From a virus, in UHGV virus genome UHGV-0140152: DNA of 19,401 bases; one strand, written 5' to 3'. The notes under the pieces are model-generated. The model worked only from the letters and a program-made list of their open reading frames with translations, had not been told where the DNA came from and searched no databases. Of this stretch, positions 3,583-19,345 are shown piece by piece; position 1 is the stretch's first letter, and the number at the start of each line of letters is the position of its first letter. The position numbers were made by a program, and so were the translations under genes.

Positions 3583-3661
3583 TACCCGATAATAATTTGT
3601 TTTCTACCTTATCTGATTTGTGAAAATGATTTCACTGAAGCAACTTAATAAGGAAAAAATC

Positions 3662-4317: not shown

Positions 4318-4425
4318 AGGTCTGGGAGTTACTTCAGTTTTAAAAATGCCTGCTTCCGTATATATAAATAATAAGTAACTTAATAAATATATACGGAAGC
4401 AGGCACTGTTAAGACTCCAGAAGTG
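4318..4425. repeat. structured palindromic element, copy 1 (17-bp stem, conserved AT-rich 22-nt loop)
   Basis: CCTGCTTCCGTATATAT-aaataataagtaacttaataa-ATATATACGGAAGCAGG with flanking ggtctgggag. A near-identical copy lies at 19171-19267. Confidence 0.7.
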
Positions 4426-4656: not shown

Positions 4657-4908
4657 ATGAGCTATCAAATTCTGACGACGACAGCAGCCAGCATTACTGA
4701 GCTGAAAAGAAACCCTATGGGCACTGTAGCTGAAGGTGAGGGGGAGGCCGTCGCAATCCTGAACCGGAATGAACCCGCGTTTTACTGTGTCCCACCAGAA
4801 CTTTATGCCTACTATCGGGAACTCGCCGAGGACGCTGAACTTAACGCGATTGCAGATGAAAGAATGAAAGAACCGGACATTGTGAAGGTTAACCTGAATG
4901 ACCTATGA
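4657..4908 (+). CDS. stbD: type II antitoxin, Phd/YefM (StbD-like) family
   Basis: 83-aa protein MSYQILTTTAASITELKRNP... resembling StbD/Phd antitoxins; GAGGAGG RBS; overlaps the downstream RelE-like toxin gene. Confidence 0.8.
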   Translation: MSYQILTTTAASITELKRNPMGTVAEGEGEAVAILNRNEPAFYCVPPELYAYYRELAEDAELNAIADERMKEPDIVKVNLNDL

Positions 4909-5179
4909 GCTGGCATTTGAACGCAGGGCACTGAAAGAATGGCAGAAGCTCGGCCACACTGTTCGTGAACAATTCAAAAAGAAGCTGTCAGAGCGCCTGA
5001 AAAATCCACATGTCCCCGCAGCCAGGCTATATGGTCATACTGACCGTTACAAAATTAAGCTTCGCGCATCCGGTTACAGGCTCGTTTATCAGGTAATTGA
5101 TGAGAAGGTTGTTTTGCTTGTCATTGCTGTAGGAAAAAGGGAAAGCAGCGAAGTCTATCACACGGCTGATACTCGTTAG
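4898..5179 (+). CDS. stbE: type II toxin, RelE/StbE family mRNA interferase
   Basis: 93-aa protein with ...RALKEWQKLG..., ...YKIKLRASGYRLVYQVIDEKVV..., ...VGKRESSEVY..., closely matching E. coli RelE as I recall it. Classic coupled antitoxin-toxin arrangement. Confidence 0.85.
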   Translation: MTYELAFERRALKEWQKLGHTVREQFKKKLSERLKNPHVPAARLYGHTDRYKIKLRASGYRLVYQVIDEKVVLLVIAVGKRESSEVYHTADTR

Positions 5180-5204: not shown

Positions 5205-5440
5205 GTTGACTAAATCTCATAATAACCTGAGGTCAATTTCTTCTGTTTGTGACCTCAGGTTAATTTCCTTTATTTATAACCTTAACTTATTAGGCTGCAT
5301 TTTATTCCGCGTCATCGCTTCATTATTTATGTATATGGCGACCTTATTTAATTACGCCCACCTGAACTTACTTCTTTTCCGCCTGTTTCATTCAGCGATA
5401 ATTAACGCATCGAAACGAAACTAAACGAAAGGAGTTAAAA
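5205..5440 (+). promoter_or_regulatory. cassette leader 1 (homologous to 6200-6342)
   Basis: 12-bp inverted repeats aacctgaggtca / tgacctcaggtt, conserved block cctgaacttacttcttttccgcctgtttcattcagcgat and a conserved RBS context. Confidence 0.55.
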
Positions 5441-6160
5441 ATGAGTGCGCGTCTTAAGAAGCTTATCAAAAAGCGTAAATCTCTTAAAGAACATGCAGAA
5501 TTGATAAATTTAATTGAAAAACGTTTTCCAGTCATTTCGGATATTGAGGACTTCTATTGGGTGGAGAAATGTAAAGTTTGGGATGGCATTGATGATGTAA
5601 AAGATGTGGATGATTTTGTCAGCAAGTACAACCCAGACATTAACTACAAACTAGCTGATGATTTTGCTGGCTCGTCTAAAGATGATCCGCTTCCTGATTG
5701 GTTTAACATTGATGATTATCCTAGTTGCATGTGTACCACCTACACCAACAAAGATTTTAGTAAAGCGTGGTTTGCTATTGCTTATGGCTGTTATTTCAAT
5801 AAGTCCGACGGAAGCAAAAGACCATATTTTCTCGCTGAAATAGACTTAACCAGCGGAGAGATTACAGTACACGAAAACCACAGGAATCTAATGAAGCTTG
5901 TTGATAGCGTTCGCGTACTGGATACAGACGCCCAGCAATTAACGAACAATGCATGGTTCGGACTTGATGGAGTAAAAGGGGGTATCGAACTGATAATGGG
6001 TCATCTTTTAAATGAATACTCGGACTGGTATCATCCGCCACACAATCCGCTTGAGTCATTTGACGATCCGCTTGAGCCATTTGACGATCCGCTGAAGGAC
6101 TACATCGATGAACCAATATATATGATGGAATCTTTTCAATTAGATATGATTCCAGCATGA
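5441..6160 (+). CDS. highly acidic hypothetical protein (239 aa); distant paralog of 8856..9503
   Basis: Track ORF; AAGGAG RBS. Shares ...DFSKAWF...FLAEIDLTSGEITV... and NPLESFDD with the minus-strand protein at 8856..9503. Confidence 0.75.
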   Translation: MSARLKKLIKKRKSLKEHAELINLIEKRFPVISDIEDFYWVEKCKVWDGIDDVKDVDDFVSKYNPDINYKLADDFAGSSKDDPLPDWFNIDDYPSCMCTTYTNKDFSKAWFAIAYGCYFNKSDGSKRPYFLAEIDLTSGEITVHENHRNLMKLVDSVRVLDTDAQQLTNNAWFGLDGVKGGIELIMGHLLNEYSDWYHPPHNPLESFDDPLEPFDDPLKDYIDEPIYMMESFQLDMIPA

Positions 6161-6199: not shown

Positions 6200-6342
6200 T
6201 CTCATCACCTCAGGTCAAATTTCCTCGTTTGCAACCTCAGGTCAATTTAAGAATGATATCACCTGTATCCCTGAACTTACTTCTTTTCTGCCTGTTTCAT
6301 TCAGCGATGATTATTACATCGAAAACAAACGAGGAATTAAAA
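6200..6342 (+). promoter_or_regulatory. cassette leader 2 (homologous to 5205-5440)
   Basis: Two acctcaggtcaa repeats, conserved block cctgaacttacttcttttctgcctgtttcattcagcgat and GAGGA RBS. Confidence 0.55.
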
Positions 6343-7269: not shown

Positions 7270-7275
7270 AAACAA

Positions 7276-7300
7276 GGCCACCACTGCTGGTGGCCTTAAA
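7276..7300 (+). terminator. putative terminator hairpin
   Basis: GGCCACCA ctgc TGGTGGCC hairpin; the T-tract is weak. Confidence 0.45.
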
Positions 7301-7472
7301 TGACCATCCTGTCTCCCGCAGGCTAAAAACACCAACCTCTTACCTCCAGGCAACCGACAAACCCACCTGTTCCCGTCCGGCTACCGCAACTTTCCACTTT
7401 GACGCCTTATTCGTACAACCATAATTAACACCAACAAGAGAACAATTTGTTATTTAGAATAAGGAATCAATC

Positions 7473-7955
7473 ATGAATTTTATCGCTACTGTAAACGCAC
7501 CCGCACATGGCAATATCGCTGTAACGTTCTCTGACACTGAAAAACGAGTACTTGGTGCATGGCGCGACAATGAGACGGTAGAACTGTCAGCACAAGAAAA
7601 ATGCATTATTGCACGCGACATCATTGGCAATCGTCGTTACTCGCGGGTATTTGAGAAAGCGTATGTGGTAAATTCTGGGTTCGGAACGTTCGTCTTTCCG
7701 GTGCGCTCCGGGCGATTCTGCCAGTCCAAGCTGATTGAGTTCGCTACGCAGATTTCTGTCTGGATTAAAACTCAATCGTCGTTCAAATTTTCCGACGATG
7801 AAGCAGTATCGCAGGGGATGCGGATCGCCAACAATGCAATTAAATGCAAAAACATTACGTATACCGCTGGCGTTGACACATGGAGACTGTTTTGCGCTAA
7901 CTTTATGCTGAATGTATACGCAAGCAACCGCATCCACATCCTTGATGGCGTGTAA
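7473..7955 (+). CDS. hypothetical protein (160 aa)
   Basis: Track ORF; AAGGAA RBS; leader shares taacaccaacaagagaacaatttgtt with the 2166 gene. Confidence 0.7.
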   Translation: MNFIATVNAPAHGNIAVTFSDTEKRVLGAWRDNETVELSAQEKCIIARDIIGNRRYSRVFEKAYVVNSGFGTFVFPVRSGRFCQSKLIEFATQISVWIKTQSSFKFSDDEAVSQGMRIANNAIKCKNITYTAGVDTWRLFCANFMLNVYASNRIHILDGV

Positions 7956-7970
7956 CTGAGAAGAGGGCCA

Positions 7971-8085
7971 GAAACGGCCCTTTCTCTATAGCCACCAGCT
8001 GCCGCAGGGAAATTTTCAGAAACGGCTAGGAACGCATTCATGAGCCGACGGGAAACGGCCAGGATTTTTTCGGGAAACGGCTACA
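7971..8085. repeat. iteron-like array, 4 copies of GAAACGGC
   Basis: GAAACGGC at about 7973, 8021, 8054 and 8076; the same core as the 1691-1802 array. The first copy sits in the loop of a GGGCC...GGCCC hairpin. Confidence 0.55.
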
Positions 8086-8207
8086 TTTGCCTTTATGTAG
8101 AAAAAACATCGGGAAGCTGGTGGAATCCAATCAGCGGTTGTCGGACAGGTGAGCGGGGAAAATCATTATGACTCTCGTCACCTGAGACATCCAGATTTCT
8201 TTCATAG

Positions 8208-10549: not shown

Positions 10550-11113
10550 TTAAAATGGAAGGATTCGGTCAACCCAATCGAAGAGAACAATCATTCTTGC
10601 ATGTTCCCTGATTTTCATCGTCACCTGACAAGCATCAACGCCTAACGACACTCCCTCTATTTCACGGCCATCCGCCATGTAGACCCTTATAGATCTGCCG
10701 TTTTGATGAGCTTTGCGACATATCTTAAAAAAGTCACGACGTGATGGCTGGTTGTTCACGTAGTCAGGATGTACGGTAAGCCTGTCCGCAAAGTCCCCAT
10801 CTACTTCTGGAGGTATAATCGTTTCTATAGAGCTAACTTTCCCAAGAGGAAGACGAACTCGACGCTCTTTGCTTCTTGGAACGGGTGATAGATCAAGTTT
10901 GTTGCGTGATGGTAGTGTTCCCTGTACATACATGTTGAATACCTGTCCATCTTCCATCGTGACTTTTACAGGAACAGAGTGTGCCCTCCAGAACATCAAG
11001 GTATGTTCCACATTAGAATAGTCTCGCGGCCATACTTCAGCCGGTATGCCGTATGTAATATCTTTCGTCGTCATATCATTATAAAGTGGTTGGCAATATG
11101 TCCATTGTACCAT
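10550..11113 (-). CDS. hypothetical protein (187 aa; possibly 174 aa from an internal ATG at about 11074)
   Basis: Track ORF. The 11113 start overlaps the lipoprotein gene by 35 nt; the alternative ATG lies a few nt after the lipoprotein stop. No clear RBS for either. Confidence 0.55.
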   Translation of the reverse strand: MVQWTYCQPLYNDMTTKDITYGIPAEVWPRDYSNVEHTLMFWRAHSVPVKVTMEDGQVFNMYVQGTLPSRNKLDLSPVPRSKERRVRLPLGKVSSIETIIPPEVDGDFADRLTVHPDYVNNQPSRRDFFKICRKAHQNGRSIRVYMADGREIEGVSLGVDACQVTMKIREHARMIVLFDWVDRILPF

Positions 11114-12066: not shown

Positions 12067-12152
12067 CTCCGGTTCTTAAGCATAGATAAGCCTACAAAAT
12101 TAATTCAGTCGATCAAGATCTTTTTTCAGCCGGAAGTTTATGTATCAAGAAG

Positions 12153-12168
12153 TGTGATCAAGTTCACA
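12153..12168. promoter_or_regulatory. perfect CRP-consensus-like palindrome TGTGA-N6-TCACA, about 95 bp upstream of 11515..12066
   Basis: tgtgatcaagttcaca inside a roughly 110-bp segment homologous to 13293-13415. Confidence 0.45.
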
Positions 12169-12311
12169 TACTGCTTTGCCAGAAGAATACCATATGCAAA
12201 ACATTCTATTGCTGTTAAAATTTAATCGTTCAGACATAAGGAAGCCCTATACCCTCGACAAATCTTTCTGGTATTGTCGAGGGCATGTTTCACATTTATA
12301 GGTAGATAGCG

Positions 12312-13292
12312 TTAATTGGTGTTTTTGTTCTTCTCTTTTTTGCTAATTTCATCACATGTAAGGTTCATTATGTCTATGTTTTCTTGCTTTTGAAGGTTGC
12401 CGACAATTTTTTTGCGCAATTCATAAAATCGCTCGCGTGGTATAGCTTCCTTGTTGCCGTTGATGTGAAGTATTGCGTGACAGCTAGGGCAGACGGCAAT
12501 CAGATCTGTTTTTGGGTTCACGCTTCGTGCATCTTCGCCTTGTGAAAGTGGGACGATGTGGTGAGCGTGTAGCAGCGTTTTCGTTTCTTTGCCGTCAATT
12601 TCCTTGCCGTATATTTCCGACATCGTTCTGCAACATAATTGACACCTGTAGTCTGCGTTTGCCAGAACGTCATTCCTTAACCCGGATACGCGGCTACGAT
12701 GTTGCGACTGGATTAATCTTGTTTCGCCCTCTATATATTCCTCAACTTCTTCTTTCTGGAGGTCGTAGCTGATTTCTTCTTGAGTCGGATGGACTTTTTT
12801 GTATAGAAGATCAAGATATTTAATGTCCTCTGTTATATATTTGGAATCCTCTAGCGAGGATATTTTTCCTGAGTCTATGTAGTCAATTAATGTAATAAGG
12901 AACATCTCTATCGATAGCCTGTTTTTAAAGGCAAACGAATATCCAAGATGTCTTCTATCTCCTGAATGAATTGGCGTCCAATGAGATTTCTCAATTTTTT
13001 GTGGTGTTACGCAGATACCTTTGCCGATATTGTTTACATGTTCCAATAATTGATAAACAGAATTAATGCGGTAAGCATGTGTTACTAAAGAATTTATTTT
13101 TCTTGTGCCGACGGAGGATTTTGTCATAACAACATGATGAGATATTTGTTTTTTTAAAATCAAATCATACGATGTAGCTTTTTGGTTTTCGCCTTTGTCG
13201 GTTTTTTTTATTAAATTTAGTTTTTTATTAGAGGCTATTTTCTCTATTTCTTCTCTAACTTCTTTTATCGTCATGTAAGTTTCTTTTGTCAT
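12312..13292 (-). CDS. HNH endonuclease, McrA-like C-terminal domain with an unrecognised N-terminal domain (326 aa)
   Basis: C-terminus YRCQLCC...LLHAHHIVPLSQGEDARSVNPKTDLIAVCPSCHAILH is an HNH motif with two Cys pairs, arranged like McrA. AT-rich gene. Confidence 0.8.
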   Translation of the reverse strand: MTKETYMTIKEVREEIEKIASNKKLNLIKKTDKGENQKATSYDLILKKQISHHVVMTKSSVGTRKINSLVTHAYRINSVYQLLEHVNNIGKGICVTPQKIEKSHWTPIHSGDRRHLGYSFAFKNRLSIEMFLITLIDYIDSGKISSLEDSKYITEDIKYLDLLYKKVHPTQEEISYDLQKEEVEEYIEGETRLIQSQHRSRVSGLRNDVLANADYRCQLCCRTMSEIYGKEIDGKETKTLLHAHHIVPLSQGEDARSVNPKTDLIAVCPSCHAILHINGNKEAIPRERFYELRKKIVGNLQKQENIDIMNLTCDEISKKEKNKNTN

Positions 13293-13390
13293 TATAATTC
13301 GACCTACTGGAATATCTTGATTTAAGAGGCTACAAATATCGTTCAGCCAATCAAGAAATTTTTTCAGCCGGAGGTTTGTACTTCAAAAAA

Positions 13391-13406
13391 TGTGATGAAT
13401 GTCACA
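13391..13406. promoter_or_regulatory. perfect CRP-consensus-like palindrome TGTGA-N6-TCACA, about 105 bp upstream of the HNH gene
   Basis: tgtgatgaatgtcaca within the duplicated promoter segment; on the minus strand it is followed by TTTTTT. Confidence 0.45.
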
Positions 13407-13431
13407 TGCAGGTGCGCTCATACACCTGCAT
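13404..13431 (-). terminator. hairpin after the stop of 13440..14006; likely terminator of the helicase operon
   Basis: CATGCAGGTG cgctcata CACCTGCATG, a perfect 10-bp stem, 9 nt past the stop codon. Confidence 0.5.
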
Positions 13432-14071: not shown

Positions 14072-14350
14072 TTACGGCAACCTGCTCAGTATTTCCTCCA
14101 GATCTTCTTTGGTCATATTAGAGTTCTCATAAATACGCATAATTTTCTCACGAGTCTTAGCAGAGACTCCAACGGCAGATGAAACTTTGTCAAATTCAGC
14201 CATTGTCATTGTCTCCAGAATGGCATTGATAACTTCAGCCTTAGACATTTTGATATTTTTTTCTTTTAGTTTCACTTGAAACTTTCCAAGTTTGTCATTG
14301 GCCTTATCCGACAATGACACCTGACAATAAGTTGTTTTCTTTTCGCTCAT
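14072..14350 (-). CDS. small putative ribbon-helix-helix DNA-binding protein (92 aa)
   Basis: N-terminal strand-helix-helix pattern (TTYCQVSLSDKANDKLGKF...MSKAEVINAILETM); start is 2 nt after the helicase stop, suggesting translational coupling. Confidence 0.55.
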   Translation of the reverse strand: MSEKKTTYCQVSLSDKANDKLGKFQVKLKEKNIKMSKAEVINAILETMTMAEFDKVSSAVGVSAKTREKIMRIYENSNMTKEDLEEILSRLP

Positions 14351-19170: not shown

Positions 19171-19267
19171 GGTCTGGGAGCTTATTTAAAGACCTGCTTC
19201 TGTATATATAAATAATAAGTAACTTAATAAATATATACGGAAGCAGGCTTAATAAGACATGCCCAGA
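19171..19267. repeat. structured palindromic element, copy 2
   Basis: ggtctgggag ... CCTGCTTCTGTATATAT-aaataataagtaacttaataa-ATATATACGGAAGCAGG. One C-to-T change in the left arm would keep a G-U pair in RNA. Confidence 0.7.
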
Positions 19268-19282
19268 TTCAATTAAACACAC

Positions 19283-19345
19283 CAGTAAACAAGTTGGTTA
19301 ATAGATGCAGTAAACAAGTTGTTTTAGAGCGCATGGACGCGCTCT
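19283..19345 (+). promoter_or_regulatory. direct repeats and operator-like palindromes upstream of the next gene
   Basis: cagtaaacaagttg twice; the second copy forms AAACAAGTTGTTT, identical to the palindrome at about 2686-2699. Followed by the hairpin AGAGCGC-atggac-GCGCTCT. Confidence 0.45.

Follow-up and report, generated by a model that had tools for sequence, protein, structure and literature searches.

Tandem Arrays of a ~30-nt Repeat at Two Loci of SSU5-Like Phage-Plasmids: Conserved Non-Coding Elements and Putative Protein-Binding Sites

Introduction

Two short arrays of a ~30-nt repeat, lying at two loci in the early region of SSU5-like phage-plasmids of gut bacteria, are, by sequence comparison, copies of one repeated element that is real and strongly conserved. 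They probably serve as cis-acting recognition sites for one sequence-specific factor, itself probably encoded by the phage-plasmid, and the reading tentatively favored here is that they are putative protein-binding sites acting on duplex DNA.

The window (i.e., the whole 19.4-kb stretch of DNA that was analyzed, from the virus genome UHGV-0140152) is part of an SSU5-like phage-plasmid, to judge by its megablast matches, which comprise non-mobilizable ~110 kb plasmids with phage genes (from Escherichia, Klebsiella, Salmonella, and others) as well as the phages Cyrano, CMS-2020a, PhiR41_1, and SSU5. Opening at the end of a metG-like gene, it passes through rightward small early or cargo genes and a leftward block to the ParB-like and ABC ATPase genes (two ParB_N proteins and one ABC ATPase) that precede the terminase. 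Such phage-plasmids are very common in Enterobacteriaceae, the region of the first array (locus 1) alone matching 834 plasmid records (PLSDB); to our knowledge, almost nothing is known about early-gene regulation or the plasmid/lytic switch in this group. Few non-coding sequences of the early region are as well conserved as the arrays, which frame the block in which cargo genes are exchanged, and the factor that reads them, once identified, would offer a first handle on early-gene or lytic-switch regulation; should they prove to be mere ordinary operator-like sites, the gain would be a better annotation of ~1.8 kb that is today blank or filled with spurious ORFs. Resistance genes have been reported on phage-plasmids, the SSU5-like group included (PMC9600943).

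The Repeat Unit and Its Two Arrays

Each unit of 28–31 nt, a period of about three helical turns, is composed of an A-rich linker, the box ACCMACCTCTT, a five-nucleotide spacer (N5), and the box CAGGCTACCG. Six units, all on the + strand, are present in the window, namely three in array 1 (997–1089; units 997–1027, 1028–1058, and 1059–1089, of the form AAAAgACCMACCTCTT-N5-CAGGCTACCG) and three in array 2 (7298–7386; units 7298–7325, 7326–7356, and 7357–7386, with boxes CAGGCTA at 7319, CAGGCAA at 7347, and CGGCTACCG at 7378). The N5 spacer is variable in array 1 and largely conserved in array 2, and a repeat-family search placed the copies in one family, with successive units starting 31 and 30 nt apart in array 1 and 28 and 30 nt apart in array 2. 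The CAGGC(T)ACCG-type repeat that the initial annotation had placed at 7310–7400 reads as claimed, its real extent (7298–7386) being slightly larger.

That this tract resembles the one at 1017–1083 beyond chance, as had also been proposed, is borne out by local alignment, which had been set beforehand as the refuting test and which found the two regions significantly alike. The Smith-Waterman score of 700–1600 against 7270–7480 was 52, compared with 20.9 ± 2.5 (maximum 30) in 300 composition-preserving shuffles, and blastn aligned 995–1079 with 7325–7403 over 85 nt, of which 73% are identical (E = 1.7e-8). In a further register, shifted by one unit, blastn joined 997–1070 to 7298–7368 (E = 3e-7), and such a pair of registers is what marks a tandem repeat.

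A profile HMM trained on 74 distinct units from relatives, with the window left out, recovered exactly six units when both strands of the window were searched, with E-values from 4e-7 to 5e-3 (5.5e-6, 4e-7, and 4.9e-3 in array 1; 2e-4, 2e-5, and 9e-4 in array 2) and no seventh unit on either strand. Beyond the window, the same profile found units in the complete 103-kb SSU5 genome only at the two homologous loci, with none elsewhere and none on the opposite strand, and a regular-expression scan agrees with this two-locus restriction. Tandem Repeats Finder missed the A+C arrays, their copies being too divergent and too few.

A CRISPR array has repeats of 28–37 nt, usually palindromic, separated by unique spacers of similar length. 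The units described here stand head to tail with a variable spacer of only 5 nt and no conserved hairpin, and a CRISPR-like identity was accordingly rejected. The same holds for a boxA or anti-Shine-Dalgarno likeness of CCACCUCUU, in which only 6–7 nt are shared; 7–8-mers complementary to CCACCUCUU occur in the window and in SSU5 at about chance frequency.

Conservation Across Relatives

Both arrays, with 1–4 units each, are carried by relatives from Escherichia, Klebsiella, Salmonella, Kluyvera, and Buttiauxella, and both loci have been kept in every SSU5-like lineage examined, across several genera. Each genome has two loci, on a constant strand and 3.0–6.3 kb apart, and the unit spacing over the relatives is 29–31 nt in array 1 and 28–30 nt in array 2. 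An exact-pattern scan of IMG/VR yielded 94 stretches, nearly all on contigs of phage-plasmid size and typically as two same-strand sites separated by 3.0–3.6 kb, chance matches (unrelated and GC-rich) accounting for 2 of the 98 unique contexts from that database. A loose 15-base pattern scanned against genome contigs gave almost exclusively single chance matches in unrelated phyla; the Kluyvera contig L176 alone showed both loci (three matches), and a second Kluyvera contig gave one match.

The constraint on the arrays is specific to sequence. In an alignment of 52 unique intergenic sequences preceding the 160-aa gene that lies downstream of array 2, the block CCCGCAGGCTAAAAACACCCACCTCTTACCGCCAGGCTACCGA (7314–7357) is the best-conserved part of the array, with at least 90% of the sequences sharing the majority base at nearly all positions; in degree of conservation, the center of array 2 matches the −10 element and the operator of that gene and surpasses the −35/−10 spacer and the third unit. 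Over five genera the boxes are near-invariant, while the neighboring −35/−10 spacer and the flanks vary, and selection on composition alone would hardly account for the conserved G residues in CAGGC. Even L106, the relative that has diverged furthest (51% identity in the 160-aa protein), possesses both arrays, with AACACCACTC replacing ACCCACCTCT in the box at both loci; the 9-mer AACACCACTC is absent from the four other divergent loci scanned (L107, L108, L176, and L189). A change in concert of this kind is most readily understood if one factor reads both arrays. Direct observations comprise the repeat with its restriction to two loci and its conservation, the variable number of its copies, and the concerted change of both arrays.

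The number of units is polymorphic, from 1 to 4 per array, and the variants include exact duplications of 30–31 nt; in one relative a single unit is left at locus 1, and the third unit of array 1 and the first unit of array 2 are degenerate. This variability and degeneracy would suit arrays that have no present function and are the leftovers of an old intergenic-module duplication, homogenized by gene conversion, as would the debris of locus 1 found beside IS elements in large Klebsiella plasmids. The latter consists of locus 1 fragments with array 1 units in two IncFIB/IncHI1B plasmids (L232, CP026154.1, and L233, NZ_CP102995.1), which look like phage-plasmid debris. Nevertheless, the conservation of the array 2 center in the 52 sequences and the retention of both loci in every lineage run counter to such an origin, and the arrays, being ~72% identical over 60–90 bp, are a poor substrate for homology-driven conversion, so that a functionless remnant appears quite unlikely.

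Locus 2: Array 2 and the 160-aa Gene

Array 2 is directly preceded by a hairpin (7274–7297, + strand; 10-bp stem AAGGCCACCA-CUGC-UGGUGGCCUU; −17.6 kcal/mol, z = −5.5) that has no U-run on either strand and that is present where the upstream gene is on the + strand and missing in SSU5 and ST13phi12.3, where the upstream gene is on the − strand. A Chi octamer lies within it, at 7286–7293. Chi octamers (GCTGGTGG or its complement) number nine in the 19.4 kb (at 1992, 2526, 2580, 6179, 7286, 7992, 8116, 14579, and 19060), one being the 3′ arm of this hairpin and two lying inside the G-rich array 2 described below, and 31 in the SSU5 genome, far above random expectation.

Downstream, array 2 is followed by 12 bases, TTGACG, CATAATTA, TAACACCAACAAGAGAACAA, an operator-like palindrome, and a ribosome-binding site, after which a conserved orphan gene of 160 aa (7473–7955, + strand) begins with its ATG. 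These elements make up a predicted promoter-operator module (7399–7452, + strand), with a −35 element TTGACG at 7399–7404, a −10 element CATAATTA at 7420–7427, a leader at 7426–7445, and the palindrome at 7440–7452; its assignment draws on the sequence, on membership in the repeat families D1 and D3, on motif counts, and on conservation. Families D1–D3 of such promoter-operator repeats precede many early genes, and the operator-like palindrome AAACAAnTTGTTT occurs at 11 sites in the window versus 3 expected; these sites are probably prophage-repressor operators that control early genes. Array 2 would thus lie about 45–135 bp upstream of the predicted promoter or transcription start of the 160-aa gene. 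The encoded protein has no Pfam domain, no structural relative, and no recognizable fold or DNA-binding motif, and the gene (CYRAN_111) is moderately expressed in E. coli LF82 with Cyrano (PMC9928086).

Promoter-operator modules were located at 205–277, 915–952, 2079–2151, 2646–2702, 3584–3627, 5361–5421, 6270–6330, 7384–7452, 14319–14340, and 19287–19324. Those at 5361–5421 and 6270–6330 are near-identical (89%) and belong to the ORFs at 5441 and 6196, upstream of which ~27-nt repeats with the palindrome AACCTGAGGTCA...TGACCTCAGGTT are found at 5222–5293 and 6204–6248.

The leader motif TAACACCAACAAGARAACAA has exactly two copies in the window, at 2122–2141 and 7426–7445 (0 expected), and the initial annotation had placed both tracts upstream of genes that share it. 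For array 2 this description stands, the second copy following 36 nt after its last unit and about 40 nt after its last CGGCTACCG box; the first copy, in contrast, is 1,033 nt downstream of array 1, and the ~1 kb in between includes non-coding A+C-rich sequence, a terminator-like hairpin, and a G-rich repeat array. A link of both tracts to a common leader was therefore abandoned, what had been called a leader being a piece of the promoter-operator module that precedes many early genes.

The left neighbor of array 2 is variable cargo. It is an ORF of 357 aa on the + strand in the window, another + strand ORF in both Cyrano and pJN2-26, and a − strand gene in SSU5 (HTH-like) and in ST13phi12.3 (DUF7706). 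Units 2 and 3 of the array persist where this neighbor is on the − strand, and no convincing + strand promoter was found between the − strand neighbor and array 2 in SSU5 or ST13phi12.3. Array 2 is thus probably untranscribed there, which favors action on DNA.

Locus 1: An A+C-Rich Transcription Unit

Array 1 is embedded in an A+C-rich, G/T-poor non-coding stretch (830–1440, + strand; A 40%, C 33%, G 13%, T 14%) and lies ~165 nt inside what appears to be an A+C-rich transcription unit of ~770 nt (830–1605). A putative sigma-70-like promoter (794–823, + strand; TTGACG-N17-TTATAC), of which the −35 and −10 elements are conserved and the spacer is variable in the window, SSU5, ST13phi12.3, L106, and L108, would drive the A+C-rich transcript; a second promoter-like site, bearing an operator, is situated at ~915–952. 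The unit ends at a terminator-like hairpin with a U-run (1577–1604, + strand), at the position of which the relatives have a hairpin of different sequence. A consensus-based promoter scan did not call the predicted promoters at either locus.

The conserved non-coding region spans ~1.8 kb. Depositors' annotations of the locus disagree on strand and frame, the NCBI pipeline leaves the 830–1440 stretch unannotated in most plasmids, and no ORF in this stretch is conserved in a consistent frame over five lineages; with a period of 28–31 nt in addition, where a coding repeat calls for a multiple of 3, a protein-coding tandem repeat was rejected. At the start of the region, a hairpin (632–650) has a conserved loop, TTCTATAAG (L106 4214–4247), and a stem that is lineage-specific yet complementary (GATTCTT/AAGAATC in the window, TCAACCTCTC/GAGAGGTTGA in L106). 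A third direct-repeat family, GCCATTACCCAATACACGGAGAA, is irregularly spaced through the A+C-rich stretch (986, 1121, 1234, and 1324, + strand); its core has five copies in SSU5, clustered at locus 1, and occurs inverted, as AATGGCG, in a conserved block at 610–621.

In L106 the A+C-rich composition of this stretch is retained although its sequence cannot be aligned above the null, which suggests that some property of the single strand is under selection, the simplest candidate being an unstructured ~770-nt RNA. A structured RNA, by contrast, is excluded: the arrays fold no better than shuffles (z = +1.39 for array 1 and +0.72 for array 2), the segment 950–1612 has z = −0.1, and no Rfam 15 family matches either array even at E ≤ 1. 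The repeated regulatory or RNA element suggested at the outset accordingly survives as one repeated, non-coding element under purifying selection in hundreds of related replicons, and not as a folded RNA. The sole Rfam matches in the window were microRNA-like false positives on long palindromes (4334–4418 and 19180–19257); they are produced by an AT-rich perfect palindrome of 61 nt (CCTGCTTCCGTATATATAAATAATAAGTAACTTAATAAATATATACGGAAGCAGG), present at 4344–4404 and 19188–19248 in two copies that are 95% identical and lie 14.8 kb apart.

Action on RNA or on DNA

These properties of locus 1 lend substance to a possible, though less probable, alternative in which the arrays act as unstructured, C-rich, G-poor RNA in + strand early transcripts, either as Rho-loading (rut-type) sites or as sites for a sequence-specific RNA-binding protein. 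Array 1 would then cause attenuation of the A+C-rich RNA or act as the loading point for a factor on it; at array 2, read-through from the upstream cargo gene would be terminated or insulated against, the U-less hairpin before the array representing a trimmed 3′ end. The ratio of C to G is 2.5–3.2, with G at 13–14% over ~90 nt, and the + strand folds worse than shuffles in both arrays; this strand asymmetry and lack of folding fit a single-strand (RNA) function better than a DNA function, as does the position of array 1 between a conserved promoter and terminator in a unit of which the composition, not the sequence, is kept in L106. Every unit is oriented with transcription, the spacing is flexible (28–31 nt), and the stable U-less hairpin precedes array 2 in lineages with a + strand upstream gene. 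The features by which rut sites are recognized are likewise found, since the arrays are untranslated over at least ~80 nt, have far more C than G (C 36–42%, G 13–14% over 93–101 nt), and show little structure.

What Rho loading needs, however, is composition, whereas the arrays conserve a specific sequence of 26 nt in which G residues are invariant; a plain Rho-loading site is thus insufficient, and a sequence-specific RNA-binding factor would still be required. The persistence of array 2 where the upstream gene points away and no + strand promoter is evident also speaks against an RNA function. Furthermore, in the one transcriptome that was found, that of the LF82 lysogen, expression of CYRAN_103, the ORF annotated over array 1, does not rise above the detection floor in vitro and barely does so in macrophages (PMC9928086). 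The array 1 transcript is thus not detected in the lysogen, and any function of array 1 RNA would belong to the lytic phase.

We therefore lean, still tentatively, toward sequence-specific protein-binding sites on duplex DNA; the promoters, the binding of a protein, DNA rather than RNA as its target, and the regulatory outcome are all inferred. Each unit would offer two boxes, ACCMACCTCTT and CAGGCTACCG, to the factor and be joined to the next by the A-rich linker. At locus 2, the bound sites would modulate the promoter of the 160-aa gene from upstream, and at locus 1 the bound factor would block or modulate the A+C-rich transcript or bridge to locus 2. Conserved boxes, variable spacers, tandem arrangement, and purifying selection, by which a generic protein-binding DNA array may be recognized, are all found, and tandem direct repeats with a 1–4-unit polymorphism are typical of such arrays. 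Reading by one factor is supported by the sequence-specific constraint, the same-strand restriction to two loci, and the concerted change in L106. Duplex DNA is favored as the target by the location of array 2 upstream of the predicted −35 element, by its persistence beside divergently transcribed cargo, and by the silence of locus 1 in the LF82 lysogen. Several points count against action on DNA, namely the 28–31 bp unit spacing, by which the sites are not strictly helix-phased, the adjacent 160-aa protein's lack of a recognizable fold or DNA-binding motif, the single unit at locus 1 in one relative, and the consensus-based nature of the promoters, which the automated scan did not call.

Replication and Partition

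Accessory replication, partition, or packaging sites, iteron- or centromere-like and acting by pairing or looping (cf. P4 ori and crr, P1 incA), represent an unlikely third identity for the arrays, in which the two ParB-N-domain proteins or a lytic initiator could be the factors. Two clusters of direct repeats in the same orientation a few kb apart, each accompanied by a second family with a ~22-nt period, would be in keeping with this identity, as would the location of the arrays in a conserved non-coding region of ~1.8 kb and the two ParB_N proteins and ABC ATPase encoded in the window. Nothing ties the ParB-like proteins to the arrays, however, and there are neither AT-rich unwinding elements nor DnaA boxes beside them; the number of units, moreover, falls to one in a relative. 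Iterons of the IncFIB-type RepA were rejected as an identity on two grounds. In sequence, the repeats flanking SSU5 repA are of the CTCACTACAGTGGATAG type, one family having 14 copies and related families occurring on either side of the gene, often at a spacing of ~21 or 40 bp, and they are unrelated to ACCMACCTCTT-N5-CAGGCTACCG; in location, the SSU5 arrays are at 90.8 and 94.4 kb and repA at 59.4–60.5 kb, more than 30 kb away.

G-Rich Arrays and Neighboring Features

Each A+C array is followed 0.6–0.7 kb downstream by an array of a second, G-rich repeat, GGGAAACGGCT(GG). G-rich array 1 (1670–1800, + strand; families D8 and D17; GGGAAACGGCTGG) has a period of ~22 nt, and G-rich array 2 (7965–8125, + strand), of the same family, lies downstream of the 160-aa gene. 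In SSU5, the one genome that was scanned whole for it, the G-rich motif clusters only at the same two places, and in L106, L107, L108, and L176 each A+C array has a G-rich cluster on its downstream side. RNA pairing at long range, by which the A+C arrays would be joined to the downstream G-rich regions, was rejected, as the 14-bp helix 1004–1017/1497–1510, which came from a minimum-energy fold and an inverted-repeat search, is not kept in SSU5 or ST13phi12.3. Duplex energies for array 1 were not better than those of shuffles in any of four lineages, and those for array 2 against 7956–8200 were borderline (3/100 and 10/100 shuffles).

A more speculative and rather improbable proposal is that two homologous modules per phage-plasmid form an undescribed regulatory system. 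Each module would comprise an A+C 30-nt array and, 0.6–0.7 kb later, a G-rich 22-nt array, placed around either the 160-aa gene or the ~770-nt ncRNA. Transcribed from an early promoter, the ncRNA would carry recognition units matching the DNA upstream of the 160-aa gene and might titrate or deliver a shared factor, or sequester Rho or a FljA-like protein, at the plasmid-lytic switch.

FljA is the repressor of phase-1 flagellin. A homologue (Pfam Flag1_repress, E = 1e-70) is encoded at 10550–11113 (− strand) and in every relative examined, including non-flagellated Klebsiella, and the module might conceivably be a decoy or target of this FljA-like regulator by mimicry of the fliC leader, or its A+C-rich RNA a sponge for sRNAs with G/U-rich seeds. 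The 12-mer TGAGCCGACGGG at 8041–8052, in G-rich array 2, is identical to the E. coli fliC leader, and ACCCAATAC of the GCCATTACCCAATAC repeat likewise occurs in that leader. These matches are at chance level, though (the 12-mer having a blastn E of 17), in SSU5 neither module has a match, the repeat families concerned are neighbors of the 30-nt unit and not the unit itself, and a literature search yielded no FljA binding site. Mimicry of the fliC leader as a FljA target was therefore rejected, and the decoy or sponge function as a whole is very unlikely, the least probable of the functions considered.

Other features of the window include a Phd/YefM-like antitoxin and a ParE/RelE-like toxin (4657–5179, + strand), which are among the early genes between the arrays and are absent there in SSU5. 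A 326-aa ORF with an HNH endonuclease domain (12312–13292, − strand) is flanked by 81-nt direct repeats (12089–12169 and 13327–13407, 77% identical), which suggests a homing-endonuclease insertion or a duplicated intergenic module.

Comparison With Known Systems

Phage-encoded examples of anti-sRNA or sponge RNAs exist, and GcvB targets C/A-rich elements. Locus 1 resembles these systems in being able to yield a non-coding, A+C-rich, unstructured RNA from a temperate element; it differs in that a stretch of ~600 nt, and not the 30-nt unit, would be involved, and in that the RNA is not detected in lysogens.

Rho utilization (rut) sites are defined by composition, and transcripts ending at them may be trimmed back to a U-less hairpin. 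The arrays are comparable in that a stop codon and a stable hairpin are followed by ~90 nt of untranslated sequence that is rich in C, poor in G, and unstructured, and unlike rut sites they show a conserved specific sequence with invariant G residues and persist without an upstream + strand gene.

The ops element (GGCGGTAGnnTG), which recruits RfaH, sits on the non-template strand of the leader of an expressed operon. The reverse complement of CAGGCTACCG, CGGTAGCCTG, fits ops positions 3–12, whereas positions 1–2 differ, and CGGTAGCCTG, being on the − strand, would serve only leftward transcription, against all flanking genes. Given the wrong strand, and since array 1 of L106 lacks the CTACCG part and has several degenerate units, an ops/RfaH identity was rejected and the resemblance is judged coincidental.

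A further comparison is with the iteron- and operator-type arrays that are bound by plasmid and phage regulators, such as the P1 incA and oriR iterons and P4 ori and crr. The period here is 28–31 bp as opposed to 19–22 bp in iteron arrays, no initiator gene, AT-rich region, or DnaA box adjoins the arrays, and their sequence is unrelated to the RepA iterons of the replicon itself. What they share with iteron- and operator-type arrays is a set of short tandem repeats in one orientation, a variable copy number, two separated loci, and concerted change between them.
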